A stretch of 33,916 nucleotides of DNA, taken from assembly GCA_035630755.1 (NCBI GenBank), contig DASQKC010000031.1, positions 1 through 33,916 on the forward strand, in the 5' to 3' direction. Position numbers and translations under genes: made by a program. The notes under the pieces are model-generated. The model worked only from the letters and a program-made list of their open reading frames with translations. It did no database searches and had not been told where the DNA came from. Source of the stretch: Actinomycetota bacterium (GTDB lineage: Bacteria; Actinomycetota; UBA4738; HRBIN12). Positions within the stretch are counted from its first letter, which is position 1. Each line of letters starts with the position of its first letter. This document shows, in pieces, positions 1,453 to 27,995 of this stretch.

Positions 1453-2904
1453 GTGGTGCAGCGTAGTCCCTACCATGCCCGCGTGGGAACCCCCGGCCGG
1501 GAGCGTGGGCACCTGGACACCGCGTGGCGCTGGTTGCCGTGGCTCCTACCCGCCGCCGTCGCCCTGGTGGCGCCGCTCGGCACGCTCGACCTCGCCTATC
1601 ACTTGCGTTTGGGCGCCCAGATGCTGTCCACACGAACGATCCCCTCTGCGGACACCTTCACCTTCTCCGTGGAGGGTCGACCCTGGCTCGATCAGCAGTG
1701 GGGAGCACAGATCCTGCTCCGGATGGTGGACGTCGCGGGCGGGTGGTCGGGGCTCGCCCTGCTCGGCGCCGCGCTCATCGCCGCCGCGATCGGATCCATC
1801 TCCCTCGCGTGCGGCGCGCGCGGCGCGAGCACCCGCGCCGCCGCCGTGCTCGCCCTCGTCGGGTTCGTCGTCGCGGCGCCGACCCTCGCGGTGCGCCCGC
1901 AGCTGTTCGGGGTCCTCGCCGTCGCGGTGGCGCTCTGGGCGGTGACGACGCGCGCGACGCATCCGGCGCGGCGATGGCTGTTGCCCGCGATCGCCCTCGC
2001 CGTCGCGAACCTCCACGGGAGCTTCCCCATCATGGTGGTCATCGCGGCCCTCGCGGCGATCGAGGATCTGCTCCGTGGCGACCGGCGAGGCCTGATCGTC
2101 GCGATCGTCACGGCGGCCGCGACCCTCGTGAACCCCTGGGGGCCGCGGGTGTGGTCCTACGTCTGGGAGATCACGAGCGACCCCGTGATCAGGACGCAGG
2201 TGACCGAGTGGGCCGCGCCGTCCCTCGCCGAGGCGAGCGGGTGGCTCGCGCTGGCCTCGGTCGTCCTCGTGACGGTCGTCGGGTACCGAGAGCGCGCGCG
2301 CGTCCGGCCGATGGACCTCGTGTGGCTCGCCGCCTTCCTCGTGCCGGCGGTCGCGAGCCAGCGGGCCGTGGTGTGGTGGGCGCTCGTCGCGCCCGTCGTG
2401 GTCGCCGGATGGGTCGCGGAGCGGGAGGTCGGCGACACCGCGGAGACGGGACGCGGGGACGCGCGCTTCGCACGCACCGTGGTCGCGACGCTGGCCGTGC
2501 TGGTGATCCTCGCGCTCCCGTGGTGGCGGGGCGGCCCGCAGCTGCGCGACGCCCCCGACGGGGTCGCCGACGCGATCGGCGCATTGCCGTCGGACACCGC
2601 CGTGATGGCGTACCAGCCGTGGTCGTCGTGGATCGAACATCGCGCCCCGGCGCAACCGGTCTACGTCGACGCCCGGATCGAACTCTTCCCGGCGGACGTC
2701 TGGGCGCGCTACGACGATCTCCTCACGGATCCCATCGGGGTGCTGGAGGCGACCGGCGCGCAGGCGGTGGCGGGTCCCGCGTCGTGGGCACCGGTGGTGG
2801 CGGCCCGCGACGCAGCGGGATGGGAGATCGCGTACGACGGGGACGACGGGGTCGTCGTCGTGCGCGAGACGCTACTCGGCGACGGCGACGCCGACGAGAC
2901 CTGA
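1453..2904 (+). CDS. Polytopic membrane protein, uncharacterised family, 'paralog A' (putative GT-C-like glycosyltransferase)
   Basis: The 483-aa ORF has many hydrophobic helices plus a soluble C-terminal part. It shares co-linear motifs with ORFs 8968-10410 and 14571-15974: DLAY, DTFTF..G.PW.DQQWGAQ, RPQL, NLHGSF, EWAAP, RAVVWW and ELFPADVW. The start is uncertain; GTG at 1453 and GTG at 1483 are both possible. Confidence 0.75.
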   Translation: MVQRSPYHARVGTPGRERGHLDTAWRWLPWLLPAAVALVAPLGTLDLAYHLRLGAQMLSTRTIPSADTFTFSVEGRPWLDQQWGAQILLRMVDVAGGWSGLALLGAALIAAAIGSISLACGARGASTRAAAVLALVGFVVAAPTLAVRPQLFGVLAVAVALWAVTTRATHPARRWLLPAIALAVANLHGSFPIMVVIAALAAIEDLLRGDRRGLIVAIVTAAATLVNPWGPRVWSYVWEITSDPVIRTQVTEWAAPSLAEASGWLALASVVLVTVVGYRERARVRPMDLVWLAAFLVPAVASQRAVVWWALVAPVVVAGWVAEREVGDTAETGRGDARFARTVVATLAVLVILALPWWRGGPQLRDAPDGVADAIGALPSDTAVMAYQPWSSWIEHRAPAQPVYVDARIELFPADVWARYDDLLTDPIGVLEATGAQAVAGPASWAPVVAARDAAGWEIAYDGDDGVVVVRETLLGDGDADET

Positions 2905-3579
2905 GCGGGTGGCGGTGCGGATCGCCGCGAGCCGGCTGCCGACCCCCAGCTTCACGTAGATCCGTCCGAGGTGCGTCGTCACGGTGCGCTCGCGCACGCC
3001 GAGCCGATCGGCGATCTGCTTGGCGGTGAGCCCCTCGGCCGCCACGGTGAGCACCTGGAGCTCGCGCGTCGTCAGCCGCGCGTCGATGTCCCGCCGCCGG
3101 TCGAGCGCGACGGCGATGTCCCCCAGATCAGACGCCTCCGGTCCTTCGAGGATCATCTCGCCCCGCGTCGAACGTCGGATCGCGTCCAGGAAGCGGTCGG
3201 GCGTCACGCTCTTGTCGACGTAACCGTCGGCGCCCACGAACAGCGCGCGGGAGACCGCCGCGGCGTCGGCGTTCGCACCCATCGCGAGCACCGCGTGGGA
3301 CGGGAAGCGTTCCCGGATCGTGCGGATCACCCACCCGACGTCGAGGTCGCCGTCGAGCCCGAGCCCGACGACCGTCACGACGCGTGTCCGACGTATCCGA
3401 CCGAGGACCTCCAGCGCTTCCTCGCCGCCCGTCGCCGTGGCCAGGACCTCGAGGTCGGGCTGCTCGGCGACCAGTCGCTCGAGGCCAGCGACGACGACCG
3501 GGAAGGCGTCGACCACGACGACGCCGAGCGGGCGTCGGAGGGGTGTGACGGAGGCCTCGGGGGTAGGCGTTCGCTTCAT
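2872..3579 (-). CDS. LuxR/NarL-family regulator with atypical receiver domain (RR-1)
   Basis: The C-terminal GerE/LuxR HTH reads LTTRELQVLTVAAEGLTAKQIADRLGVRERTVTTHLGRIYVKLGV. The N-terminal domain has receiver-like layout, but DD is replaced by DA (VVVVDAFP) and a Gly sits at the expected phospho-Asp position (VVTVVGLGLDGD). I prefer the ATG at 3579, which has a GAGGA ribosome-binding site, over the track start at 3633. Confidence 0.8.
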   Translation of the reverse strand: MKRTPTPEASVTPLRRPLGVVVVDAFPVVVAGLERLVAEQPDLEVLATATGGEEALEVLGRIRRTRVVTVVGLGLDGDLDVGWVIRTIRERFPSHAVLAMGANADAAAVSRALFVGADGYVDKSVTPDRFLDAIRRSTRGEMILEGPEASDLGDIAVALDRRRDIDARLTTRELQVLTVAAEGLTAKQIADRLGVRERTVTTHLGRIYVKLGVGSRLAAIRTATRSGLVGVAVAE

Positions 3580-3673
3580 CTCAGGATCCTCGAGGAGCGT
3601 ACCGGTCCAGTGGTCGGGGCCACACCCCGACATCAGTCCTATCGGCGCGCCGGCGCGGCCTCCTGAAGCGGTC

Positions 3674-4333
3674 TCACTCGAGGTCGATGAGGCCCAGCGC
3701 CGCCCCCTTGGCCACCGCCTGGACGCGGCTGGTGACCTCGAGCTTGCGGTAGAGCTTCGCGACGTGGCTCTCCACGGTGCGTGGCGAGATCCCCAGGCGC
3801 CTACCCACCTGGCGCATCGTCAGCCCGTCGGCGAGCAGCCCGAGGATCTCGCGTTCGCGCGCCGTCACGGTCCCGTCCAACCGGGCCCCCGCTCGTGTCT
3901 GCCGGACGTAGCGTCCGAACTCGACGAGCACGTCGTCGCCGAGCGAGGGATCGAGGACCCGCTCGCCCGCCCGGGCCCGCACGACGGCATCGCCGGCGGC
4001 GCGGAGGCCGTCGGGCTTCAGCAGGTAGCCGGCGACGCCGGCCCGCAGCGCCCGGAGGACGGTGGCACCGTCGGCGCGGTCGGAGACCGCGACGACGGAG
4101 CGCCCGTTCGACGCCGCGGAGTGGATGAGGGTGAGTCCGTCCTCGTCGGGGAGCTCCAGATCCAGCACCACCGCGTCGGGCGCGAGGGCCTCCAGGGCCC
4201 CCGGGACCTCCGCCGCCGTCGAGACCTCGCCGATGACGCCCAGCGCCTCCCGCGACTCGACCGCCAGCCGAACGACCCCGAGGATGACGGGATGGCCACC
4301 CACGAGGAGGACGCGGGTCGCGGCGGGGGTCAT
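3674..4333 (-). CDS. LuxR/NarL-family response regulator with degenerate acidic pocket (RR-2)
   Basis: The 219-aa ORF has HTH REREILGLLADGLTMRQVGRRLGISPRTVESHVAKLYRKLEV. The receiver keeps AVVLDLELPDEDG and YLLKP, but the DD pair after beta1 is GG (VLLVGGHP). Confidence 0.85.
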   Translation of the reverse strand: MTPAATRVLLVGGHPVILGVVRLAVESREALGVIGEVSTAAEVPGALEALAPDAVVLDLELPDEDGLTLIHSAASNGRSVVAVSDRADGATVLRALRAGVAGYLLKPDGLRAAGDAVVRARAGERVLDPSLGDDVLVEFGRYVRQTRAGARLDGTVTAREREILGLLADGLTMRQVGRRLGISPRTVESHVAKLYRKLEVTSRVQAVAKGAALGLIDLE

Positions 4334-4370
4334 AGGCGGAGGCTACGCGGCGCGGCCGTCCGGCCGGATC

Positions 4371-5000
4371 TCAGACACCCGCGGGCACACCGGTGATGCC
4401 GACGCGCCACGCGACCCGCGCAGCCTCGATCTTCGTGTGGACGCCGAGCTTGGCCAGCAGGTTCTTCACGTGGCTCTGGACGGTCGCCGGGGCGATCCCG
4501 AGCGTCACCGCGACGTGCGTCGTGCTCGCCCCCTCCGCGATCATCCGGAGGACCTCGCGCTCCCTCGACGTGAGCCCGTCGAGGCGCGCGGCGTCGTCGG
4601 TCCGACGCGGCTGCCCCAGGGACCCGAGGATGGCGGCCAGCCGCCCGTCGGGGACGACGATCTCGCCGGCGGCCGCACGACGCAGGGCGTCCCAGCGGAG
4701 CCGCGGCTCCGGGGGGATGACGCCGCAGGCCCCGATGGCGAGCACCTCGGCGGTGACCGCGTCGTCGTCGGTCCCCGCGGCCATGACGCGGGTGGCCGGG
4801 AAGGCGTCGACGGTCTCACGGACCGCGGGCACGCCGCACACGCGGAGATCCACGACGGCGAGCTCCGGGGAGATCCCCGCCGCCACCGCGATCGAGGGTG
4901 CGAACGGTCCCCAGACCCGGACGCCGCGGCCGCGGACCGCCGCGACGAGCTCGCGCACCACCACCGCGTCACCGACCCCGAGGATCCCGCGCATGTCCAT
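4371..5000 (-). CDS. LuxR-family regulator with degenerate receiver-like N-domain (RR-3)
   Basis: This is the C-terminal part of track ORF 4371..6014. The HTH reads LTSREREVLRMIAEGASTTHVAVTLGIAPATVQSHVKNLLAKLGV. The upstream 338 codons of the track ORF are antisense to the yyaL-like gene and were rejected. The start is taken at MDMRG (ATG at 5000); alternatives are ATG at 4994 and GTG at 5003. Confidence 0.7.
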   Translation of the reverse strand: MDMRGILGVGDAVVVRELVAAVRGRGVRVWGPFAPSIAVAAGISPELAVVDLRVCGVPAVRETVDAFPATRVMAAGTDDDAVTAEVLAIGACGVIPPEPRLRWDALRRAAAGEIVVPDGRLAAILGSLGQPRRTDDAARLDGLTSREREVLRMIAEGASTTHVAVTLGIAPATVQSHVKNLLAKLGVHTKIEAARVAWRVGITGVPAGV

Positions 5001-18403: not shown

Positions 18404-19387
18404 ATGACCCGACCCAGCGTGCTGGTGACCCGCCCGATCATGGAGGCGCCGCTCGCGCGCCTGCGCGAGCGCTGCGACGTCACGGTGGACGAGAACGACT
18501 TCGGCATCCCGCGCGACGACCTGCTCGAGACGGTGGCGGGTCGCGAAGCCCTCATCACGATGCTGACCGAGCAGGTGGACGCCGAGCTGCTCGCGGCCGC
18601 CGGACCGCAGCTCCGGATCGTCGCCAACCACGCCGTCGGGTTCGACAACGTCAACCTGGCTGACTGTTCGGCGGCCCGCGTGATGGTGTCGAACACCCCC
18701 GACGTGCTCACGGAGACCACCGCCGATACCGCGTTCGCGCTGATCATGGCGGCGGCCCGCCGCGTGGGCGAGGGCGAACGGTTCCTGCGCCGCCGCGAGC
18801 CGTGGATCTGGGGGCCGCTGATGATGCTCGGCCAGGACGTCCACCACAAGACGATCGGCATCGTCGGGTTCGGGCGCATCGGCCAAGCGGTCGCGCGCCG
18901 CGCGAAAGGCTTCGGCATGGAGGTCATCTACACGGACGCGGTGACGCTGCCGGCCGAGGTCGAGGCCGAGACGGGGGCGCGTCGCGTCGAGATGGACGAG
19001 CTCCTGCGCGTGGCCGACGTGATCTCGATCCACACGAACCTCACCCCCGAGACGCGCCACCTGTTCGGCGCCGAGCAGTTCCGCGCGATGAAGCCCTCGG
19101 CGATCCTCGTGAACACGTCGCGCGGGCCGGTCGTCGACGAGGCGGCGCTCGCCGCGGCGCTCGCGTCCGGCGAGATCTTCGCGGCGGGGCTCGACGTCTT
19201 CGAGCGCGAGCCAGACGTGACTCCCGCGCTGCTCGATCTGGAGAACGCGGTCGCGATCCCGCACCTGGGGAGCGCCACGGTCGACACGCGCGACGCGATG
19301 GGGCACGTGGCCGTGGACAACGTGTTCGCGGCGCTCGACGGCGAGCGACCGCCGACCCTGCTGAACCCCGACGTGCTGGAGCGGTAG
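18404..19387 (+). CDS. D-isomer-specific 2-hydroxyacid dehydrogenase (glyoxylate/hydroxypyruvate reductase-like)
   Basis: The 327-aa ORF has VGFDNVNL, the NAD-binding sequence GIVGFGRIGQAVARRA, and NTSRGPVVDE...PHLGSAT. A GAGGAGG ribosome-binding site is present. Confidence 0.9.
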   Translation: MTRPSVLVTRPIMEAPLARLRERCDVTVDENDFGIPRDDLLETVAGREALITMLTEQVDAELLAAAGPQLRIVANHAVGFDNVNLADCSAARVMVSNTPDVLTETTADTAFALIMAAARRVGEGERFLRRREPWIWGPLMMLGQDVHHKTIGIVGFGRIGQAVARRAKGFGMEVIYTDAVTLPAEVEAETGARRVEMDELLRVADVISIHTNLTPETRHLFGAEQFRAMKPSAILVNTSRGPVVDEAALAAALASGEIFAAGLDVFEREPDVTPALLDLENAVAIPHLGSATVDTRDAMGHVAVDNVFAALDGERPPTLLNPDVLER

Positions 19388-19390
19388 GCC

Positions 19391-21847
19391 GTGGGCTCGC
19401 CGGGGGAAGGCCGTCGCACGCGGCCGGCGCCCGACGCGCTACGCCGCGACGTGCGGCTGCTGACCACCCTGCTCGGCGACCAGATCCGTGCGCACGACGG
19501 GGAGGCGCTGTACGCGACGGTCGAGGGCCTTCGGCGCGCGGTGATCAGGCTGCACGAACGCCCGACGCCGGCGCGCGCCGCAGGGGTGCGACGGCGCGTG
19601 GCGACCATCGATCCGGACGAGGCGATCCGGGTCGCCCGCGCGTTCACCGCCTTCTTCCAGCTGGTGAACGTCGCCGAGGACCGGCAACGCGTACGGGAGT
19701 TGCGCGCGCGCGGGGCACACGACCTGCCCTCGCCGATCCGGCGACCGGTCGAGCTGACCGAGGTGCTCACCGCCCACCCGACCGAGGCCAAGCGCCGGGC
19801 GGTCGTCGAGCACCTGTGGCGGATCAGCGACACGCTGGACTCGCTCGACGATCCGCGGTGCGCCGGACGCGTCCGGGCGGATCTGCAGCGCCGTCTCGCC
19901 GAGGACGTCGCGAGCCTGTGGCTCACCGATCCGGTCCGCCTGCACGCGCCGACGCCCCTCGACGAGGTCCGGGCGACGATGGCGCTCTTCGACCGGACGA
20001 TCTTCACGACCCTCCCCCGGCTACTCTCCTCGGTGGGGCCGGACGTCCGCGTCCGGTGGGCCACGTGGGTCGGCGGCGATCGCGACGGGAACCCCCGCGT
20101 GACCGCCGACGTCACCGCGGAGGCCGCCCGGATCGCCCGCGACCACGTGCTGCGCGGGTACGAGACGGCGTCCCGCCGGATCGCGCGGGCGCTCTCGGTG
20201 AGCGCGGCCGACGTCCCGCCGTCGACCGCCCTGCGACGATCGCTCACGCGGGACGCGCGCGCGTTCCCCGCCCGCGCCGCCGAGCTCGCGCGGACGCTGC
20301 CCGACGCGCCGCACCGCCGCAAGCTCGTCCTGGTGGCCGAGCGGCTCGCCGCCGTCCGGGAAGGCCGCGGCGGCGCCTACGAGGGGCCCGACGCGTTCCG
20401 ACGCGACATCGCGCTGCTCCGGGCGTCGCTCCGGGAGGGTGGGGCGGCGATCCTGGCCGAGGGCGAGCTCGCGCACCTCGCGTGGCAGGCCGACGCGTTC
20501 GGGTTCCACCTCGCCTCGGTCGAGGTCCGCCAGCACGCGGCGGTCCTGCGGCGCGCCGTCGCCGAGCCGGACGCGGAGGTGGATGCGACCTTCCGCACGA
20601 TCGCGGCCCTGCACCGCGACCTCGGCGTGGCGTCCTGCCCGCGGTTCGTCGTGAGCTTCACCCGCGCGGCAGCCGACGTGGCCGCCGTGTACACGCTGGC
20701 GCGGCGCGCCGACCGCGCGCTCCCCCGCCACCTCGACGTCGTCCCGTTGTTCGAGTCCGGCGCCGAGCTGGCGCGCGCGACCGAGATCCTCGACGCGATC
20801 GTCGCGGTGCCCGCGGTGCGGGCGCGCCTGCGCGCGAACGGCGACCGGTACGAGGTGATGCTGGGGTACTCGGACTCGGCCAAGGAAGCCGGCGTCCTCG
20901 CCGCGTCGATCGCCCTGTACGACACGCAGCGCCGGATGGCAGCGTGGGCGCGGCGTCGCGGGATCACCCTCACGCTGTTCCACGGGCGCGGCGGCGCGCT
21001 CGGTCGCGGCGGCGGGCCGACGGCACGCGCGATCGTGGCGCAGCCGCCGGGGAGCGTCGACGGCCGGTTCAAGGTCACCGAGCAGGGCGAGGTGGCGTTC
21101 GCCCGCTACGGCGATCCCGACATCGCGTGGCACCACCTCGAGCAGGTGGTCCGCGCGGTCGCCACCGCGCCGGGGCGTCGGACGCCCGACCCCGCCCGCG
21201 CGCACCCGCGGACCATCGCTACGATGCGCGACGCGAGCGAGCGCGCGTGGCGCGACCTCGTGACGACGCCGGGGTTCGCGCGGTTCGTGACCGCGGCCAC
21301 CCCGATCGCGCACATCGCGAGCCTGCCGATCGCGTCGCGGCCCGTGTCGCGCACCGGCACCGTCGAGGACCTCGACGCGTTGCGGGCGATCCCGTGGGTC
21401 TTCTCGTGGGCGCAGGCCCGCGTCAACCTCCCGGGGTGGTTCGGGCTGGGCGCCGGCCTCGAGGCGGTGGCCGACGAGCGCGGCGGTCTCACCGAGCTCC
21501 GGCGGCTGTACGCGGACTGGCCGTTCTTCGCGGTGCTGCTCGAGAACGCCTCGCTCTCGCTCGCCAAGGCCGACGCCGGCCTCGCGGCCCGCGCGCTGGC
21601 GCGCGCCGAGCGCCCCGACATCGCGGCCACGATCAAGGGCGAGTGGGACCGGACCGAACGCCTGATCCTCGCCGTGACGCGCGAGCCCCGCCTCCTCGCG
21701 AGCCGCCCGGGGCTGCTGGCCTCGATCGAGCTGCGCGCCCCCTACGTGGACGTCCTCTCGTACCTACAGCTGGAGCACCACGACGATCGCCGCGTCGTCC
21801 AGGCCACCATCGGAGGCATCGCCGCCGGCCTGCAGAACACCGGCTGA
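19391..21847 (+). CDS. ppc: Phosphoenolpyruvate carboxylase
   Basis: The 818-aa ORF has LRRDVRLLTTLLGDQI at the N-terminus, then TAHPTEAKRR, VMLGYSDSAKEAG, FHGRGGALGRGGGP and the canonical C-terminal QNTG. It starts 3 nt after the dehydrogenase stop. Confidence 0.95.
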   Translation: MGSPGEGRRTRPAPDALRRDVRLLTTLLGDQIRAHDGEALYATVEGLRRAVIRLHERPTPARAAGVRRRVATIDPDEAIRVARAFTAFFQLVNVAEDRQRVRELRARGAHDLPSPIRRPVELTEVLTAHPTEAKRRAVVEHLWRISDTLDSLDDPRCAGRVRADLQRRLAEDVASLWLTDPVRLHAPTPLDEVRATMALFDRTIFTTLPRLLSSVGPDVRVRWATWVGGDRDGNPRVTADVTAEAARIARDHVLRGYETASRRIARALSVSAADVPPSTALRRSLTRDARAFPARAAELARTLPDAPHRRKLVLVAERLAAVREGRGGAYEGPDAFRRDIALLRASLREGGAAILAEGELAHLAWQADAFGFHLASVEVRQHAAVLRRAVAEPDAEVDATFRTIAALHRDLGVASCPRFVVSFTRAAADVAAVYTLARRADRALPRHLDVVPLFESGAELARATEILDAIVAVPAVRARLRANGDRYEVMLGYSDSAKEAGVLAASIALYDTQRRMAAWARRRGITLTLFHGRGGALGRGGGPTARAIVAQPPGSVDGRFKVTEQGEVAFARYGDPDIAWHHLEQVVRAVATAPGRRTPDPARAHPRTIATMRDASERAWRDLVTTPGFARFVTAATPIAHIASLPIASRPVSRTGTVEDLDALRAIPWVFSWAQARVNLPGWFGLGAGLEAVADERGGLTELRRLYADWPFFAVLLENASLSLAKADAGLAARALARAERPDIAATIKGEWDRTERLILAVTREPRLLASRPGLLASIELRAPYVDVLSYLQLEHHDDRRVVQATIGGIAAGLQNTG

Positions 21848-21959
21848 CCCCATCCAGAGGTGCCGATTCGCGCGAACGCGCCGGCGGTGCTAGGAACGAG
21901 GGAACGGCTTCTTCCGGCGTCGCGCCCGGACGCCGCCGACGGGAAAGGGGATCCCTCCG

Positions 21960-23681
21960 ATGCGTCGACGCACCAAGCTGGGCGTCGGTCTCACGACCGC
22001 GCTCCTCACCGCCCTGGTCCTGACCCCCGCGATCGGCGGCAGCCCTGCGGCGGCGGTCGACCCCGCGACGCCATCGCGTGTCCTGCTGCTCGTCATCGAC
22101 GGCATGCGGGCGGACTACCTCGACCGGTACGACCTGCCGAACCTCGAGGCGCTCCGCGCGAGCGGCGTCGGCTTCTCGCGCAGCCAGGTCGGCTACATGT
22201 CGTCGATCACCGTGATCAGCCACAACGTGATCGCGAGCGGCCAGCTCCCCAAGCACCAGGGGTGGTCGAACGAGATCTTCCGCGACACCGAGAACGCGCT
22301 GGGCGGCGGCGCCGGCGGCCTGTACGTCATGTCGAGCGCGGCCTGCGACGACTTCCGACTGCTCACGACGCACGAGGGGTACCCCAAGCTCGCCGACTAC
22401 CTCGATGCGCTCGAGACCGACGGCGACGCGAGGTTCGTGTCGATCGCGACGAAGGACCGGTCGGCGTGCGGCGTCGGCCAGCCGGTCGCCAACGGATCCA
22501 ACGACATGATCGTCGGGATGGCGCGCCTGAGCGCCCCGGGCGTCACGTGCGACGGCATCCTGCACCGGTGGCGGGTCCCCCGCGGGGCGAACATCCCCAC
22601 CGGCCCCGGCGACATCGGCGAGGAGTGCGGCCGCTGGTACGTCAACAGCACGCTCGACTACGGCACGCTGTCCACCTCACCGGCGTGGCTGTACCCCCTC
22701 GACGGGAACCGGTTCGTCACGGGGTTCGACCCGGTGCGCAAGGGGGGCGACGTCTGGTCGACCGACGCCGCGCTCAAGGTGATGCGGGACGACTTCTCCG
22801 ACGCCGACGAGGACGACTGGCGCGGGCTGTTCGTCGGCCTCGCGGGGCCGGACAAGATGGCCCACATGTGGGGCCCCGACGACGACGTGACCGGGCCCAC
22901 GGCGACCGACGCGATGATCCACCTCCCGGGTGCCCTGGCCACCGTCGACGAGCAGGTCGGCAGGCTCCTCGACGAGCTCGAGGCCGAGGGGATCCTCGAC
23001 GACACGCTGATCGTCGTCACCGCCGACCACGGCATGACGGAGGCCGAGAGCTTCCACGGCAGGCCCGGGGTCGCGAACGTCACGGGACAGGGCGACCTGA
23101 ACTGGTACTTCGGCGCCGAGACCGGCTCGCGCGCCGATGAGTCCTACGTGAGCCCGAGCCCGGCGATCGCCGCGCTGGGACAGCGGATCGGCTCGAACCT
23201 GGCGTTCTCGTACCAGGACACGCACGTGGCGGTCTGGCTGAAGTCGGGGACGAAGGCGCAGCGGTCCGCCGCGGCCGTCGCGATGCGCCAGCTGCCGGAC
23301 GCGATCGCGACGTACCGGCTCAACGGCGCGATGGACGGGTACGTCCGGGACTGGGTGTCGCCGACGATGGCCTCGTCGGAGCGCTCGTGGTTCAACCGGA
23401 ACGCACAGCGCCTCATCAACACGATGGCCTCGCCCAACAACGCCGACGCCGTGGCGCTCCTGGCGAACGACGTCACCTACAGCGTCCAGGGCGACCACGG
23501 CGGTCACCAGCGCGACAACCAGATGATCCCGATCTTCTTCTCAGGACCGGGCGTGCCGTCGGGTGTCACCTCCGACGTCCCGATCGGCAACGTCGACATC
23601 CTGCCGACGATCCTCGAGCTGCTCGGGGTCGCGCCCACGGCGCCGTTGGACGGGGTCGCGTTCGACCTCCGCGCCGCGTAG
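21960..23681 (+). CDS. Secreted alkaline-phosphatase-superfamily protein (nucleotide pyrophosphatase/phosphodiesterase-like)
   Basis: The 573-aa ORF has the Sec-type signal MRRRTKLGVGLTTALLTALVLTPAIGG. LLLVIDGMRADYL is a metal-binding Asp block, and VVTADHGM is a DHG block. Confidence 0.8.
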   Translation: MRRRTKLGVGLTTALLTALVLTPAIGGSPAAAVDPATPSRVLLLVIDGMRADYLDRYDLPNLEALRASGVGFSRSQVGYMSSITVISHNVIASGQLPKHQGWSNEIFRDTENALGGGAGGLYVMSSAACDDFRLLTTHEGYPKLADYLDALETDGDARFVSIATKDRSACGVGQPVANGSNDMIVGMARLSAPGVTCDGILHRWRVPRGANIPTGPGDIGEECGRWYVNSTLDYGTLSTSPAWLYPLDGNRFVTGFDPVRKGGDVWSTDAALKVMRDDFSDADEDDWRGLFVGLAGPDKMAHMWGPDDDVTGPTATDAMIHLPGALATVDEQVGRLLDELEAEGILDDTLIVVTADHGMTEAESFHGRPGVANVTGQGDLNWYFGAETGSRADESYVSPSPAIAALGQRIGSNLAFSYQDTHVAVWLKSGTKAQRSAAAVAMRQLPDAIATYRLNGAMDGYVRDWVSPTMASSERSWFNRNAQRLINTMASPNNADAVALLANDVTYSVQGDHGGHQRDNQMIPIFFSGPGVPSGVTSDVPIGNVDILPTILELLGVAPTAPLDGVAFDLRAA

Positions 23682-23704
23682 CGATCGGGCCTGAACGCGG
23701 GTCA

Positions 23705-23729
23705 GCCGCCCGGCTACCGGCCGGGTGGC
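23705..23729 (+). terminator. GC-rich hairpin downstream of the phosphodiesterase gene (possible intrinsic terminator, no U-tract)
   Basis: Read directly from the sequence: GCCGCCCGGC-taccg-GCCGGGTGGC, a 10-bp stem with one G:U pair, 24 nt after the TAG at 23679-23681. Confidence 0.3.
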
Positions 23730-23798
23730 CGATCGCCCTATCCTCCGGCCTCCAGTCCCGCGCGGGCAGACCCGGCGGGATCCGATCGGGAGGAACCC

Positions 23799-24938
23799 AT
23801 GGCTGACCTGGTGACCACGATCCCCGCGCTCGACCCCGGCGACCGGCTCCTGTGCGGTCCCGGCCCGTCGAACGTGCACCCCGCGGTGCTCGACGCGATG
23901 CGCCTGCCCATGAACGGGCATCTCGACCCCGACTTCTGGGACATCCTGCTCGACCTGGTCGCCGGCCTGCGGGCCCTCTGGCGGGCCCCCGAGGACGGGC
24001 TCACGATCGCCCTGTCGTCGAGTGGTAACTCCGCGATGGAGGCCGGCTTCATGAACCTGATCGAGCCCGGCGACACGGTGATCTCGTGCCACTGGGGTTT
24101 CTTCGGGTCGCGGCTCAACGACTTCGCGCATCGGATCGGTGCCGAGGTCGTGGAGCTCAGCGCCGACCTCGGCCAGATCGTGCCCGTCGACCGGATCATG
24201 GAGGCGGTCGCCGCGCACCCCGAGGCCACGATCGTGAGCGTCGTCCACGCCGAGACATCGACCGGCGCCGACTTCCCGCTCGGCGAGCTGGGCGCGGCGC
24301 TCCGCGCGGTCGGCTCGGAGGCGCTGCTCTACGCGGACTGCGTCACGTCGCTCGGGGGCCAGCAGGTCGAGGCCGACGCGTGGGACCTCGACTTCGCCTA
24401 CTCGTGCTCGCAGAAATCGCTCGGGTGCCCGCCCGGGCTCGCGCCCGTGTCGATCAGCCCCCGGGCGATCGAGGCGATGCAGCGCCACACGACGCCGGTC
24501 CCCTACTACTACGACGTCGAGGAGCTCGCGAGGTACTGGATCGACCGGCCGATCACCTACCACCACACGATGCCGATCCTGCAGTACTACGCCCTGTACA
24601 CGGGGGTGAAGCTCGCGCTGGACGAAGGCCTCGAGGTGCGCTGGGCACGCAACGACGACGCGGGCCGGTACTTCCAGGAGCAGATCCGCGCCCGCGGGTT
24701 CGACCTGTTGGCCGCCCCCGACCACCAGCTCGTCGAGCTGACCGCCATCAAGGTGCCCGACGGCGTGGACGGCAAGGAGGTCCAGACCCGGATCCTCCGC
24801 GAGCACGGCATCGAGGTCGGGGGCGGGCTGGGGCCGAAGGCGCCGCCGATCTGGCGCGTCGGGCTGATGGGCGTGAACGCGAACCGCGAGACCGCCGACC
24901 GGGTGCTCGCCGCGTTCGACGCCGTCCTGCCCCGGTAG
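23799..24938 (+). CDS. sga: Class-V pyridoxal-phosphate aminotransferase (serine-glyoxylate / alanine-glyoxylate type)
   Basis: The 379-aa ORF has LLCGPGPSNVHPAVLDAM, SSSGNSAMEAG and DFAYSCSQKSLGCPPGL (the SQK PLP-lysine block). A GGGAGG ribosome-binding site is present. The specific substrate is inferred from gene context only. Confidence 0.75.
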   Translation: MADLVTTIPALDPGDRLLCGPGPSNVHPAVLDAMRLPMNGHLDPDFWDILLDLVAGLRALWRAPEDGLTIALSSSGNSAMEAGFMNLIEPGDTVISCHWGFFGSRLNDFAHRIGAEVVELSADLGQIVPVDRIMEAVAAHPEATIVSVVHAETSTGADFPLGELGAALRAVGSEALLYADCVTSLGGQQVEADAWDLDFAYSCSQKSLGCPPGLAPVSISPRAIEAMQRHTTPVPYYYDVEELARYWIDRPITYHHTMPILQYYALYTGVKLALDEGLEVRWARNDDAGRYFQEQIRARGFDLLAAPDHQLVELTAIKVPDGVDGKEVQTRILREHGIEVGGGLGPKAPPIWRVGLMGVNANRETADRVLAAFDAVLPR

Positions 24939-24944
24939 GCGGCC

Positions 24945-25910
24945 ATGGCCGACACCGCCCGGCTCCACCGGAGCGAGCTCGCCGTGCCCGGCACGAACGT
25001 GCGGGCGATGGCGAAGTCGCCGACCCTGGGCGCCGACGTCGTGTTCCTGGACCTCGAGGACGCCCTCGCGCCCGACGACAAGGAACAGGCGCGCGCGAAC
25101 GTCATCGACGCCCTCGGGACGCACGACTGGTCGGCGACCGCCGTGAGCGTGCGGATCAACGGCCTGGACACGCACTGGTGTTACCGCGACGTCGTCGACG
25201 TGGTCGAGGCGCGCGGCGACGTCCTCGACACGATCCTGGTCCCGAAGGTCGGCAGGCCGTCCGACGTCGAGTTCGTGGGGACGCTGCTCGACCAGATCGA
25301 ACAACAACGGGGGTGGGAGCCGGGTCGGATCGGGATCACGATCCTCATCGAGACCGCGATGGGGATGGCCAACGTCGAGGCGATCGCGCGCGCCCGACCG
25401 GACCGGCTCGAGGCGATGTCGTTCGGCGTCGCCGATTACGCGGCCAGCGTCCGGGCGCGGACGACGAACATCGGCGGCGCCACCCCCGGCTACGCCGTGC
25501 TCACCGACCCCGACGACGCGGGCGCCCGCGCGACGCACTGGGGCGACCAGTGGCACTTCGCGATCAGCCGGATGGTCGCCGCGTGCCGCGCCGAGGGCCT
25601 GCGCCCGATCGACGGGCCCTTCGGCGACATCGACGACGCGGACGGGTACCGGAGCGCGGCGCGGCGCGCCGCCGCGCTGGGGTGCGAGGGCAAGTGGGCG
25701 ATCCATCCGAGCCAGGTGGCGCTCGCCAACGAGGTGTTCACGCCATCGGCGGCCGAGGTCGCCCGTGCCGAGCGGATCCTGCAGGCGATGCAGGAGGCCG
25801 CGGCGCAGGGCAAGGGGGCGGTGGCGCTCGACGGCCGCCTCATCGACGCCGCGTCCATCCGGATGGCGGAGAACCTGGTGCGCAAGGTCGAGCAGATGCG
25901 CGCCCGCTGA
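24945..25910 (+). CDS. mcl: HpcH/HpaI-CitE family lyase, L-malyl-CoA/beta-methylmalyl-CoA lyase-like
   Basis: The 321-aa ORF has RSELAVPGTN, VFLDLEDA, VRINGLDT, ILIETAMG, MSFGVADYAAS and KWAIHPSQV. Its length and blocks match Mcl-type rather than short CitE-type enzymes. Confidence 0.8.
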   Translation: MADTARLHRSELAVPGTNVRAMAKSPTLGADVVFLDLEDALAPDDKEQARANVIDALGTHDWSATAVSVRINGLDTHWCYRDVVDVVEARGDVLDTILVPKVGRPSDVEFVGTLLDQIEQQRGWEPGRIGITILIETAMGMANVEAIARARPDRLEAMSFGVADYAASVRARTTNIGGATPGYAVLTDPDDAGARATHWGDQWHFAISRMVAACRAEGLRPIDGPFGDIDDADGYRSAARRAAALGCEGKWAIHPSQVALANEVFTPSAAEVARAERILQAMQEAAAQGKGAVALDGRLIDAASIRMAENLVRKVEQMRAR

Positions 25911-25929
25911 AGGGCGCCAGGAGGGGAAC

Positions 25930-27099
25930 GTGAACATCCACGAGTACCAGGCGAAGTCGCTGCTCCGCGGCTACCGCGTCACCACGCCGCGCGGCGAGGT
26001 CGTGTACACGTCGAAGGCCGCCGCGCGCGTGGCCGAGGAGCTGGGCGGCCAGCGATGGGTCGTGAAGGCACAGATCCACGCGGGCGGGCGCGGCAAGGCC
26101 GGCGGGGTGAAGATCGGGAACTCCCCCGACCGGATCGCCGAGCTCGCCGACCAGCTGCTCGGCTCGACGCTCGTCACGGCACAGACGGGGCCCGAGGGCC
26201 AGCGGGTCAGCCGCGTCCTCGTCGAACGTGCGTCGCGGATCGAACGCGAGTTCTACCTGTCGCTCACGGTCGATCGCGACGCGCAACGGATCGTCGTCAT
26301 CGCGAGCGCCGAGGGCGGCGTCGACATCGAGGCGGTCGCGTCGGCACGACCCGAGGCGATCCACACCGAGGTCGTGGACGCCGGCGTCGGGCTGCTCGAC
26401 TTCCAGTGCCGCAAGATCGCGATCGCGATCGGCCTAGGGAAGAAGACGACGTCGTTCACCCGGCTCCTGAAGCGCATGTACCGCCTCTTCCGCGATTCGG
26501 ACTGTCTCCTGCTCGAGGTCAACCCCTTCATCGAGACCGAGGACGGCGAGCTGGTGGCGCTCGACTGCAAGATGAGCTTCGACGACAACGCCCTGTTCCG
26601 TCAGGGCGACGTGGTGGAGCTGCGCGACTTCGACGAGGAGGACCCCAAGGAGGTCGAGGCCACCGGGCACGGCCTCAACTACATCGCGCTCGACGGCTCG
26701 GTCGGCTGCATCGTGAACGGCGCGGGCCTCGCGATGGGGACGATGGACGCGATCGTCCACCACGGCGGCCGTCCGGCGAACTTCCTCGACGTGGGCGGCG
26801 GGGCGAGCCCGGAGAAGATCGCGAACGCGTTCCGGATCGTGATGAAGGATCGGAACGTGCGGGTGATCCTCGTGAACATCTTCGCGGGGATCAACCGGTG
26901 CGACTGGATCGCGCAGGGCGTCGTGCACGCGACGCGGGACCAGGCGATCGAGGTGCCGGTCATCGTCCGGCTCGCCGGCACGAACGTGGACGAGGGCCGG
27001 CGGATCCTGGACGAGAGCGGTCTGGCGCTGATCCAGGCCGAGGACCTCGACGACGCCGCCGCGAAGGCCGTTGCCGCGGCCCGGGAGGTGGCGGCGTGA
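25930..27099 (+). CDS. mtkA: ADP-forming acyl-CoA ligase beta subunit (malate-CoA ligase MtkA-like, or SucC)
   Basis: The GTG at 25930 is preceded by AGGAGG. The sequence contains VNIHEYQAKSLL..., VVKAQIHAGGRGKAGGV and CIVNGAGLAMGTMD. The Mtk assignment over Suc rests on the adjacent mcl, sga and ppc genes. Confidence 0.7.
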   Translation: MNIHEYQAKSLLRGYRVTTPRGEVVYTSKAAARVAEELGGQRWVVKAQIHAGGRGKAGGVKIGNSPDRIAELADQLLGSTLVTAQTGPEGQRVSRVLVERASRIEREFYLSLTVDRDAQRIVVIASAEGGVDIEAVASARPEAIHTEVVDAGVGLLDFQCRKIAIAIGLGKKTTSFTRLLKRMYRLFRDSDCLLLEVNPFIETEDGELVALDCKMSFDDNALFRQGDVVELRDFDEEDPKEVEATGHGLNYIALDGSVGCIVNGAGLAMGTMDAIVHHGGRPANFLDVGGGASPEKIANAFRIVMKDRNVRVILVNIFAGINRCDWIAQGVVHATRDQAIEVPVIVRLAGTNVDEGRRILDESGLALIQAEDLDDAAAKAVAAAREVAA

Positions 27100-27995
27100 G
27101 CGTCTTCATCGATCGCGAGTCCCGGGTCATCTTCCAGGGCTTCACGGGCCAGCACGCGACGTTCCACGCCGAGGAGGCGATGTCCTTCGGCACGAACGTC
27201 GTGGGCGGCGTCACGCCCGGCCGCGGCGGCGGGGTGCACCTCGGGTTGCCGGTCTTCGACAGCGTCGAGGACGCCGTCGAGGCGACGGGTGCGACCGTCA
27301 GCGGCATCTTCGTCCCGCCGCAGATCGCCGTGGACTCCCTGTACGAGGCCGTGGAGTGCGGGATCCAGGTCGCGGTCATCATCGCGGACGGGGTCCCGGT
27401 CCAGGACATGGTCCGGGTGAAGCGTTACCTCGCCGGCCGGTCGACCACGATCATCGGGCCGAACTCCCCGGGGATCATCACGCCGGGCGCGTGCAAGGTC
27501 GGGATCATGCCGAGCCACATCTACGCCCCCGGGCGGATCGGCGTCGTGTCGCGGAGCGGCACGTTGAACTACGAGGCGGTCTCGCAGATGACCCGCCTGG
27601 GTCTCGGCCAGTCGACGTGCGTCGGGATCGGGGGGGACCCGGTCAACGGCACCGACTTCAAGGCGGTGCTCCAGGCCTTCGAGAACGACGACGATACGGA
27701 CGTCGTCGTGATGATCGGCGAGATCGGCGGGCAGCAGGAGGTCGAGGCCGCCGCCTGGGCGGCGCAGTACATGCGTAAGCCCCTCGTGGCGTTCATCGCC
27801 GGGGTGTCCGCGCCGCGCGGGCGGCGGATGGGGCACGCGGGCGCTGTCATCAGCGGCGACGCCGACACGGCGACGGCCAAGCTCGACGCGATCGAGGCGG
27901 TCGGCCACCAGGTGGTGCGCAACCCCGCCGAGATCGGCGACGCCGTACTCCGGGTCGCCAAGGAGGGCGGCGTGAGCGTCCTCCCCGCGTCATGA
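27096..27995 (+). CDS. mtkB: ADP-forming acyl-CoA ligase alpha subunit (MtkB-like, or SucD)
   Basis: The start has a GTGA overlap with the beta-subunit gene and a GGGAGG ribosome-binding site. The sequence contains VIFQGFTGQHATFH, GPNSPGIITPG, SRSGTLNYE and the phosphohistidine loop MGHAGAVISG. Confidence 0.7.
   Translation: MSVFIDRESRVIFQGFTGQHATFHAEEAMSFGTNVVGGVTPGRGGGVHLGLPVFDSVEDAVEATGATVSGIFVPPQIAVDSLYEAVECGIQVAVIIADGVPVQDMVRVKRYLAGRSTTIIGPNSPGIITPGACKVGIMPSHIYAPGRIGVVSRSGTLNYEAVSQMTRLGLGQSTCVGIGGDPVNGTDFKAVLQAFENDDDTDVVVMIGEIGGQQEVEAAAWAAQYMRKPLVAFIAGVSAPRGRRMGHAGAVISGDADTATAKLDAIEAVGHQVVRNPAEIGDAVLRVAKEGGVSVLPAS

Follow-up and report, generated by a model that had tools for sequence, protein, structure and literature searches.

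A predicted operon with the six signature genes of the serine cycle in an uncultured soil actinobacterium

The serine cycle is a route to biomass from one-carbon units, which is known mainly from proteobacterial methylotrophs. Whether it may also be encoded in soil Actinomycetota is the question raised by contig DASQKC010000031.1 of an uncultured soil actinobacterium. An initial annotation of this DNA had described seven co-directional genes between positions 18404 and 27995 and had read them as a module for serine, glyoxylate and malyl-coenzyme A (malyl-CoA). The window, i.e., the whole stretch of DNA that was analyzed, is the complete 33.9-kb contig (C31) of a 2.08-Mb metagenome-assembled genome (MAG), which comprises 189 contigs with a guanine and cytosine (GC) content of 72%. 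The coordinates of the seven genes, all gaps between them and a GTGA overlap were confirmed. The genes are predicted to form one operon, which includes the complete set of six serine-cycle signature genes:

18404–19387, plus strand: hprA-like glyoxylate/hydroxypyruvate reductase (GRHPR family D-2-hydroxyacid dehydrogenase), 327 amino acids
19391–21847, plus strand: ppc, phosphoenolpyruvate (PEP) carboxylase, 818 amino acids
21960–23681, plus strand: inserted gene outside the pathway, phosphodiesterase/sulfatase-like protein of the alkaline phosphatase superfamily, 573 amino acids
23799–24938, plus strand: sga-like class-V aminotransferase of the AGXT (alanine/serine:glyoxylate/pyruvate) type, 379 amino acids
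24945–25910, plus strand: mcl, L-malyl-CoA/beta-methylmalyl-CoA lyase with HpcH/CitE fold, 321 amino acids
25930–27099, plus strand: mtkA, malate thiokinase (malate–CoA ligase) beta subunit, 389 amino acids
27096–27995, plus strand: mtkB, malate thiokinase alpha subunit, the start of which overlaps the stop of mtkA (GTGA), 299 amino acids

The genes hprA and ppc are separated by 3 nucleotides (nt), sga and mcl by 6 nt, and mcl and mtkA by 19 nt, and the GTGA of the 4-nt overlap between mtkA and mtkB was read directly. The GC content at the third codon position is 0.94–0.96 in each of the seven frames, which are therefore regarded as real genes.

The operon would supply every step that is specific to the serine cycle, and a serine cycle fed by one-carbon units bound to tetrahydrofolate (THF) or by formate is, by a narrow balance of probability, what we expect from these sequences. 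In this cycle, the AGXT-type aminotransferase would transfer the amino group of serine to glyoxylate, yielding hydroxypyruvate and glycine, and the GRHPR-type reductase would convert hydroxypyruvate to glycerate. PEP carboxylase (PEPC) would form oxaloacetate from PEP, MtkAB would activate malate to malyl-CoA, and Mcl would cleave this thioester, releasing acetyl-CoA and glyoxylate. The cycle would be closed by enzymes encoded elsewhere in the genome, namely serine hydroxymethyltransferase, glycerate kinase, enolase, malate dehydrogenase, FolD and formate-THF ligase (FtfL), and glyoxylate would be regenerated by isocitrate lyase (ICL), as in the icl-plus variant.

The ligase pair might also be merely a second succinyl-CoA synthetase, the clustering of which with glyoxylate enzymes has no meaning for a pathway. 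Close homologues are often labelled ADP-forming succinate–CoA ligase by PGAP and JGI, and the identity of the window beta subunit to SucC of Bacillus (54%) is about the same as that to alphaproteobacterial MtkA (55%). The beta subunit clears the cut-offs of the SucC models (536 vs. 370 bits). In the NCBIfam model of the malate–CoA ligase beta subunit (NF010647), it reached 552 bits, which is below the equivalog cut-off of 604 bits; in this analysis, all matches above this cut-off (plasmid genes named by PGAP) were alphaproteobacterial. MtkB contains the Pfam domains CoA_binding and Ligase_CoA.

The host genome encodes a second sucCD pair on contig C91, which has identities of 43% (beta) and 52% (alpha) to the window subunits, and its sucC scored only 337 bits in the malate–CoA ligase model. 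For the phylogenetic analysis, the mcl-linked ligases from 80 related loci and a second SucC-type copy from four of their genomes were sampled together with the annotated SucCD pairs of Escherichia coli, Bacillus, and Azospirillum as references. The maximum likelihood tree of the beta subunit comprises 40 sequences, with the very divergent paralogue of locus L047 left out. In this tree, canonical SucC, including the copy on C91, is split from the mcl-linked ligases with a branch support of 90/92. The latter fall into two clades, one of alphaproteobacterial MtkA (99/98) and another (100/99) that has the actinobacterial sequences (100/99) nested among Methylococcaceae, Nitrotoga, and Sedimenticolaceae. 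The alpha subunit tree has the same topology (support of 96 for the SucD group and of 99 for the Mtk clade of gamma-, betaproteobacterial and actinobacterial sequences). In both trees, the C91 pair groups with SucCD of E. coli and Bacillus, and the window pair groups with the mcl-linked malate thiokinases. Constraining the actinobacterial ligases to SucC costs 18 log-likelihood units, with a marginal p-value of 0.04 in the approximately unbiased (AU) test, the groups of which were named post hoc with the tree already in view.

Both trees thus oppose a second succinyl-CoA synthetase, as does the canonical sucCD pair that was found in each genome tested. A clustering without meaning for a pathway is opposed by the position of the Mtk-type pair, which strictly adjoins mcl in all 46 loci matched in Actinomycetota and Pseudomonadota. 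We consider this explanation very improbable, and the assignment of the window ligase to malate thiokinase rather than SucCD is supported by the comparisons. The initial annotation had named as a counter-case that the pair is the only sucCD of the genome and groups with SucCD, and neither was found. The mtk genes of the window are of the gamma/betaproteobacterial type. Methylococcaceae pairs form the branch nearest to that of the window, and the active Mtk of Methylococcus capsulatus is presumably the mcl-linked pair of that species. Co-expressed with an Mcl, the M. capsulatus Mtk rescued an acetyl-CoA auxotroph of E. coli (PMC5964204).

Three further ligase sequences were recorded. A third SucD-like fragment, with about 51% identity over 203 residues, lies on contig C88 (1410–2030) of the host genome, and no beta partner was detected for it. 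Locus L047 (11153–13300) of an Actinomycetes MAG carries a very divergent SucCD-like pair adjoining mcl, which is 30 and 38% identical to that of the window and had a branch length of 10 in the first beta subunit tree. The 5.6-kb contig JBLMXP010000045.1, labelled Planctomycetaceae, contains mcl-mtkAB genes with 79–86% identity to those of the window. Its ligase and lyase genes nest within the actinobacterial clade in all three trees. A mis-binned contig of actinobacterial origin is the most likely explanation.

The lyase gave its strongest matches in the Protein Data Bank (PDB) to solved malyl-CoA lyases, 5UGR (4e-129, 434 bits) and 4L9Y (5e-92, 312 bits), whereas Chloroflexus-type lyases reached 203 bits and CitE types at most 128 bits (1e-36 or weaker). 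The assignment as a malyl-CoA lyase rather than a CitE-type protein or a citramalyl-CoA lyase is thereby supported. The window Mcl is 62–68% identical to the proteins of alphaproteobacterial loci, including those of Methylobacterium, Methylorubrum (66%), Methylopila, and Hansschlegelia, and 72–73% identical to Mcl of Methylococcaceae. The backbone of the Mcl tree is without resolution, and therefore no direction is given for a horizontal transfer of mcl.

The aminotransferase belongs to the Pfam family Aminotran_5, and its best PDB match is the cyanobacterial alanine-glyoxylate aminotransferase 1VJO (1.9e-97). Weaker matches were obtained with animal alanine-glyoxylate and serine-pyruvate aminotransferases (about 1e-68), the plant serine-glyoxylate aminotransferase (SGAT) 6PK1 (1.4e-30), PhnW (1.5e-17), and the SerC model TIGR01366 (3e-7), so that the enzyme proves to be AGXT-like and neither PhnW nor SerC, the two alternatives that had been raised for it. 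Sga of Methylorubrum shows the reverse pattern (6PK1 9e-146, 1VJO 2e-39). By its pattern of PDB matches, the window enzyme is of the AGXT1 type and lies outside the SgaA/plant SGAT subfamily.

The hprA-like reductase contains the Pfam domain 2-Hacid_dh_C (9e-61). Its best NCBIfam model is glyoxylate reductase with 345 bits, which is under the cut-off of 455 bits, and its PDB matches are glyoxylate reductases of Pyrococcus (2e-93) and the D-glycerate dehydrogenase 1GDH of Hyphomicrobium (6e-65), the serine-pathway enzyme of that organism. From the family membership of these two proteins, we infer that the functions of a serine-glyoxylate aminotransferase and a hydroxypyruvate reductase are present in the operon.

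PEPC matches the Pfam family PEPcase with 6e-205 and the E. coli enzyme 1FIY with 3.5e-93. It had been remarked that the protein is short with its 818 amino acids, which is true but matters little, since no catalytic motif is missing, with TAHPT (127), GYSDS (492), FHGRGG (530), and the C-terminal QNTG all found. A tblastn search detected no second copy in the host genome. The window ppc is 54–71% identical to ppc of close relatives, while the neighbouring genes mostly reach 76–90% (sga down to 65%).

The remaining genes of the cycle were searched in five genomes, i.e., the host genome and four close MAGs of about 3 Mb. All five encode glyA, FtfL, FolD, a glycerate kinase of the PF02595 type and ICL, and no glycerate kinase of the MOFRL type was found in them. 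In the host genome, enolase, malate dehydrogenase, and GcvP, GcvH, and GcvT are present as well. The genes gck, glyA, eno, and mdh and those for one-carbon transfer thus lie outside the window, as had been stated, and were located on other contigs. With them, the serine cycle appears genetically closed in this genome. The enzyme identities, the separate sucCD pair and these genes on other contigs support the reading of the locus as a serine/glyoxylate/malyl-CoA module; the direction of flux, the one-carbon source and the physiological role we infer.

Methylene-THF would most likely be derived not from methanol but from THF-dependent N-demethylases of the sarcosine oxidase and dimethylglycine dehydrogenase types and from formate via FtfL and FolD. 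Enzymes of these two types pass N-methyl groups to THF. The host genome encodes two proteins similar to the alpha subunit of sarcosine oxidase (Fer2_4, SO_alpha_A3, GCV_T) and three DAO-FAO_M-GCV_T fusions. These five large proteins of the THF-linked demethylase type are located on contigs C115, C95, C116, C33, and C160 (loci L119–L122 and L124). They are accompanied by stand-alone GcvT paralogues in the genome, and overall there are at least five THF-linked N-demethylase paralogues. On contig C36 (11206–16051, locus L106), genes for a GcvT-like aminomethyltransferase, a formiminotransferase (FTCD_N), and a cyclodeaminase (FTCD_C) lie in a row converging on that of FtfL and seem to form a small THF one-carbon island.

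The gene of a formate dehydrogenase alpha subunit, which would serve the energy supply, is located on the same contig (C36, 18450–20357), 2.4 kb from that of FtfL. It contains one in-frame TGA in the motif SCNRT-U-HAPS, which is conserved in all five genomes, and a tRNA-Sec with the anticodon TCA is encoded in the host genome. The formate dehydrogenase is probably a selenocysteine enzyme. The search for one-carbon genes that the initial annotation had proposed gave a divided result: glyA, glycerate kinase, FtfL, and formate dehydrogenase were found, whereas MtdA and the methanol dehydrogenases dependent on pyrroloquinoline quinone (PQQ) or N,N-dimethyl-4-nitrosoaniline (NDMA) were not.

Three other routes were considered for the glyoxylate enzymes and dropped. 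Phosphoglycolate salvage, as it might apply in Nitrotoga and Thiodiazotropha, was dropped since no RuBisCO was found in the five genomes, and oxalate assimilation since the only match to Frc was a family-III CoA-transferase with 29% identity. For the glyoxylate carboligase route, the best candidate in the host genome is an acetolactate synthase.

The gene order hprA-ppc-sga-mcl-mtkA-mtkB, without the inserted gene, is kept in the four related MAGs (loci L004, L005, L008, and L009), so that the arrangement is not due to chance. In these loci, the matches to ppc and sga end about 40–150 bp apart, and the phosphodiesterase-like gene is therefore an insertion private to the window genome. The close long-read MAGs carry frameshifts. 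In L009 (5825–9997), ppc and the aminotransferase gene form a single open frame of 1390 amino acids, with a match to ppc that covers nothing beyond residue 746 of 818. The frame may be genuine, through fusion or truncation, or may stem from an error in the long-read assembly.

The wider distribution was analyzed in 41 genomes of the family and in a larger sample of the order, the members of which are related and hence not independent. Unpublished genomes are included in the tallies (G013, G022, G035, G038, G039, G047, G057, G060, G081, G099, and G105). An Mtk-type ligase was found in 17 of the 41 family genomes. The operon is accessory in the family, as about 40% of the sampled genomes hold it, and the presence of Mtk varies within genera: it occurs in G011 and is missing in G052, which is 97% complete. 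PEPC is encoded in 10 of the 17 Mtk-positive and in 8 of the 24 Mtk-negative genomes. Leaving out G099 and G105 changes the family counts to 16/39 for Mtk, 33/39 for ICL, 18/39 for PEPC, 39/39 for FtfL, and 36/39 for crotonyl-CoA carboxylase/reductase (Ccr). The stable core is sga-mcl-mtkAB, and the closed gene set of the window is one state among several. In soil metagenomes, close homologues of the ligase are very common; the best 120 matches have identities of 84% or higher, and thousands of further ones lie above the threshold.

Several observations weigh against an assimilatory serine cycle, to which the missed cut-off of the MtkA model and the marginal AU test already belong. The host MAG is incomplete (73.9% completeness, 3.75% contamination). 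The PQQ-dependent and NDMA-dependent methanol dehydrogenases and Mch, the marker of the tetrahydromethanopterin (H4MPT) pathway, were not found in the five genomes, and MtdA had no match in the host genome. The Fch homologue, i.e., the FTCD_C protein of the one-carbon island with 40% identity to Fch of Methylorubrum, was rejected as a marker of methylotrophy, as its gene adjoins that of the formiminotransferase and it is therefore probably a cyclodeaminase. Among the 17 Mtk-positive relatives, 7 lack PEPC, including G011 of the same genus (98% complete), so that a closed cycle is not conserved across the clade. FtfL (41/41), Ccr (38/41), and ICL (35/41) occur family-wide and do not track the operon; they are therefore background and not specific support, and FtfL and Ccr were dropped as specific partners of the operon.

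A different use of the same enzymes is the main rival explanation, namely a glyoxylate hub that replaces malate synthase. Here, Mcl would condense glyoxylate and acetyl-CoA, and MtkAB, operating in reverse, would free malate and conserve one ATP. The glyoxylate would come from ICL or from the oxidation of glycolate, PEPC would be anaplerotic only, and the aminotransferase, glycine cleavage, GlyA, and the reductase would route surplus glyoxylate via glycine, serine, and hydroxypyruvate to glycerate in a manner resembling photorespiration. Malate synthase (PF01274) was found in none of the five genomes and in 1 of 21 family members, whereas ICL is present in the five genomes and in each of the 17 sampled family members with Mtk. 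Among the published genomes of the order sample, Mcl occurs in 3 of the 11 with and in 45 of the 61 without malate synthase; with the unpublished genomes, the counts are 5 of 14 and 51 of 67, respectively, but these associations are not phylogenetically independent. No true glyoxylate carboligase was found in the host genome, which contains the full set of GcvPHT and a GlcD/GlcE-like oxidase pair; the GlcD score, however, falls short of the equivalog cut-off, and GlcF was not seen next to this gene.

The nearly complete genomes G052, G024, G064, and G067 keep ICL without malate synthase and without Mcl and Mtk. The family therefore copes without the module, and the absence of malate synthase predates it. 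ICL without malate synthase is the state of most family members sampled. The condensation of glyoxylate and acetyl-CoA, moreover, needs no ppc within the operon. A linkage of ppc and mcl was also found in the loci L035, L036, and L076 of Gaiellales/Thermoleophilia. The position of ppc inside the operon and this linkage in more distant Actinomycetota favour the direction from PEP via oxaloacetate, malate, and malyl-CoA to glyoxylate. The glyoxylate hub seems rather unlikely to us as the explanation of the operon, although it and the serine cycle are not mutually exclusive, because Mcl and Mtk are both reversible.

The lyase could also act chiefly as the beta-methylmalyl-CoA lyase of the ethylmalonyl-CoA pathway for acetyl-CoA assimilation, with the other genes as accessory functions of glyoxylate handling. 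This explanation would fit the bifunctionality that lyases of the Mcl type show in Methylobacterium and Rhodobacter. Ccr was detected in all five genomes and exceeded the curated cut-off wherever it was not frameshifted (497 vs. 379 bits in the host genome). In G002, ccr lies near genes for a thiolase and for a protein similar to the propionyl-CoA carboxylase beta subunit, but it has no neighbours of the ethylmalonyl-CoA pathway. Since Ccr occurs in 38 of the 41 family genomes and mcl-mtk in about 40%, the two do not travel together, and we regard this explanation as improbable.

Beyond the gene content of a single genome, it is conceivable, though at present a tentative proposal, that a genuine assimilatory serine cycle operates in an abundant, uncultured clade of soil Actinomycetota. 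This cycle would combine an aminotransferase, a reductase, and a PEPC of this phylum with an Mtk of the gamma/betaproteobacterial type and would be fed by N-methyl-derived methylene-THF and formate instead of methanol.

The operon is flanked by unrelated housekeeping genes, upstream by that of a GNAT acetyltransferase and downstream by those of LigD, an ATP-dependent DNA ligase, and TypA/BipA. A scan of this high-GC DNA for promoters and terminators found nothing. The inserted gene (21960–23681) matches the Pfam families Phosphodiest (3e-24) and Sulfatase (1e-10) and has a paralogue with 37% identity on contig C123. Its N-terminus starts with MRRRTKLGVGLTTAL, which by eye resembles a signal peptide. 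Three LuxR/NarL-type regulators (2872–5000), 13 kb upstream of the operon, were considered for a relation to the SecR regulators of serine-cycle operons (PMC13199381) and set aside, as no specific link was seen. Two tblastn matches within this region have about 27 and 29% identity to the response regulator of the Paracoccus serine-cycle cluster, and other regulators of the genome score at least as well.

Known actinobacterial methylotrophs are described as users of the ribulose monophosphate (RuMP) cycle. Full-text searches of the literature brought up no report of a serine cycle in Actinomycetota. According to a recent study, genes of the serine pathway were not found in a Mycobacterium methanotroph (PMC12366331). 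All of the enzymes are already known, and some public records name the beta subunit malate–CoA ligase. What would be new is this chemistry in a phylum for which we found no description of it, with two enzymes that are not orthologous and no classical module for one-carbon oxidation. If the serine cycle operates as proposed, it allows a widespread lineage of soil bacteria to assimilate methyl groups and formate independently of methanol, and such one-carbon assimilators are invisible to surveys of the markers mxaF/xoxF, fae, and mch. If the flux is reversed, the module is an ATP-conserving replacement of malate synthase in a family with ICL and almost never malate synthase. In either direction, the label succinyl-CoA synthetase in many public records hides the pathway.

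The same six enzyme functions are clustered in alphaproteobacterial methylotrophs (Methylobacterium/Methylorubrum, Methylopila, and Hansschlegelia; loci L080, L062, L067, L079, and L082). Their gene order, however, is sga-hprA-mtdA-fch-mtkA-mtkB-ppc-mcl. The window cluster contains neither mtdA nor fch and, in contrast to these methylotrophs, no PQQ methanol dehydrogenase or H4MPT genes were found in its genome. Identities to the window proteins are 66–68% for Mcl, 53–56% for MtkA, and 52–54% for MtkB. In Methylorubrum (L080), they amount to 66, 56, and 53%, respectively, compared with 30% for the aminotransferase, 32% for the reductase, and 29% for PEPC. For the clusters of the alphaproteobacterial methylotrophs as a group, the latter three amount to about 30, 33, and 29%, and they are not orthologues of the window genes.

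The nearest relatives outside the Actinobacteria are the triads of Gamma- and Betaproteobacteria (Methylococcaceae, Ca. Nitrotoga, Ca. Thiodiazotropha, and Sedimenticolaceae; loci L014–L052), with identities of 60–65% for MtkA, 64–73% for MtkB, and 62–73% for Mcl. They share the order mcl-mtkA-mtkB and the tight packing with the window, but their surroundings of about 10 kb gave no match to an aminotransferase, a reductase, or ppc. Many hosts of these triads are Calvin-cycle autotrophs or RuMP methanotrophs, whereas no RuBisCO was found in the lineage of the window.

Serine-cycle genes without methanol genes, as in the window, are also known from the cluster on plasmid p429813 of Paracoccus alcaliphilus (gck-mcl-RR-sga-mtkA-mtkB-hprA) and from Aminobacter, which are methylamine users. 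The D-glycerate dehydrogenase of the Paracoccus cluster is 43% and its aminotransferase 25% identical to the window proteins. This cluster includes a glycerate kinase and a response regulator and, unlike the window operon, excludes ppc.

In modules of Thermoleophilia (Gaiellales, Solirubrobacterales, and Thermoleophilaceae; loci L011, L013, L025, L035, L036, and L041–L081), an AGXT-type aminotransferase with 54–61% identity adjoins an Mcl with 64–77% identity. As in the window, ppc or the reductase gene is sometimes included, but Mtk does not adjoin. The operon is a mosaic and not a copy of a proteobacterial cluster, because the Methylobacterium genes for the aminotransferase and the reductase are not orthologous to those found here.

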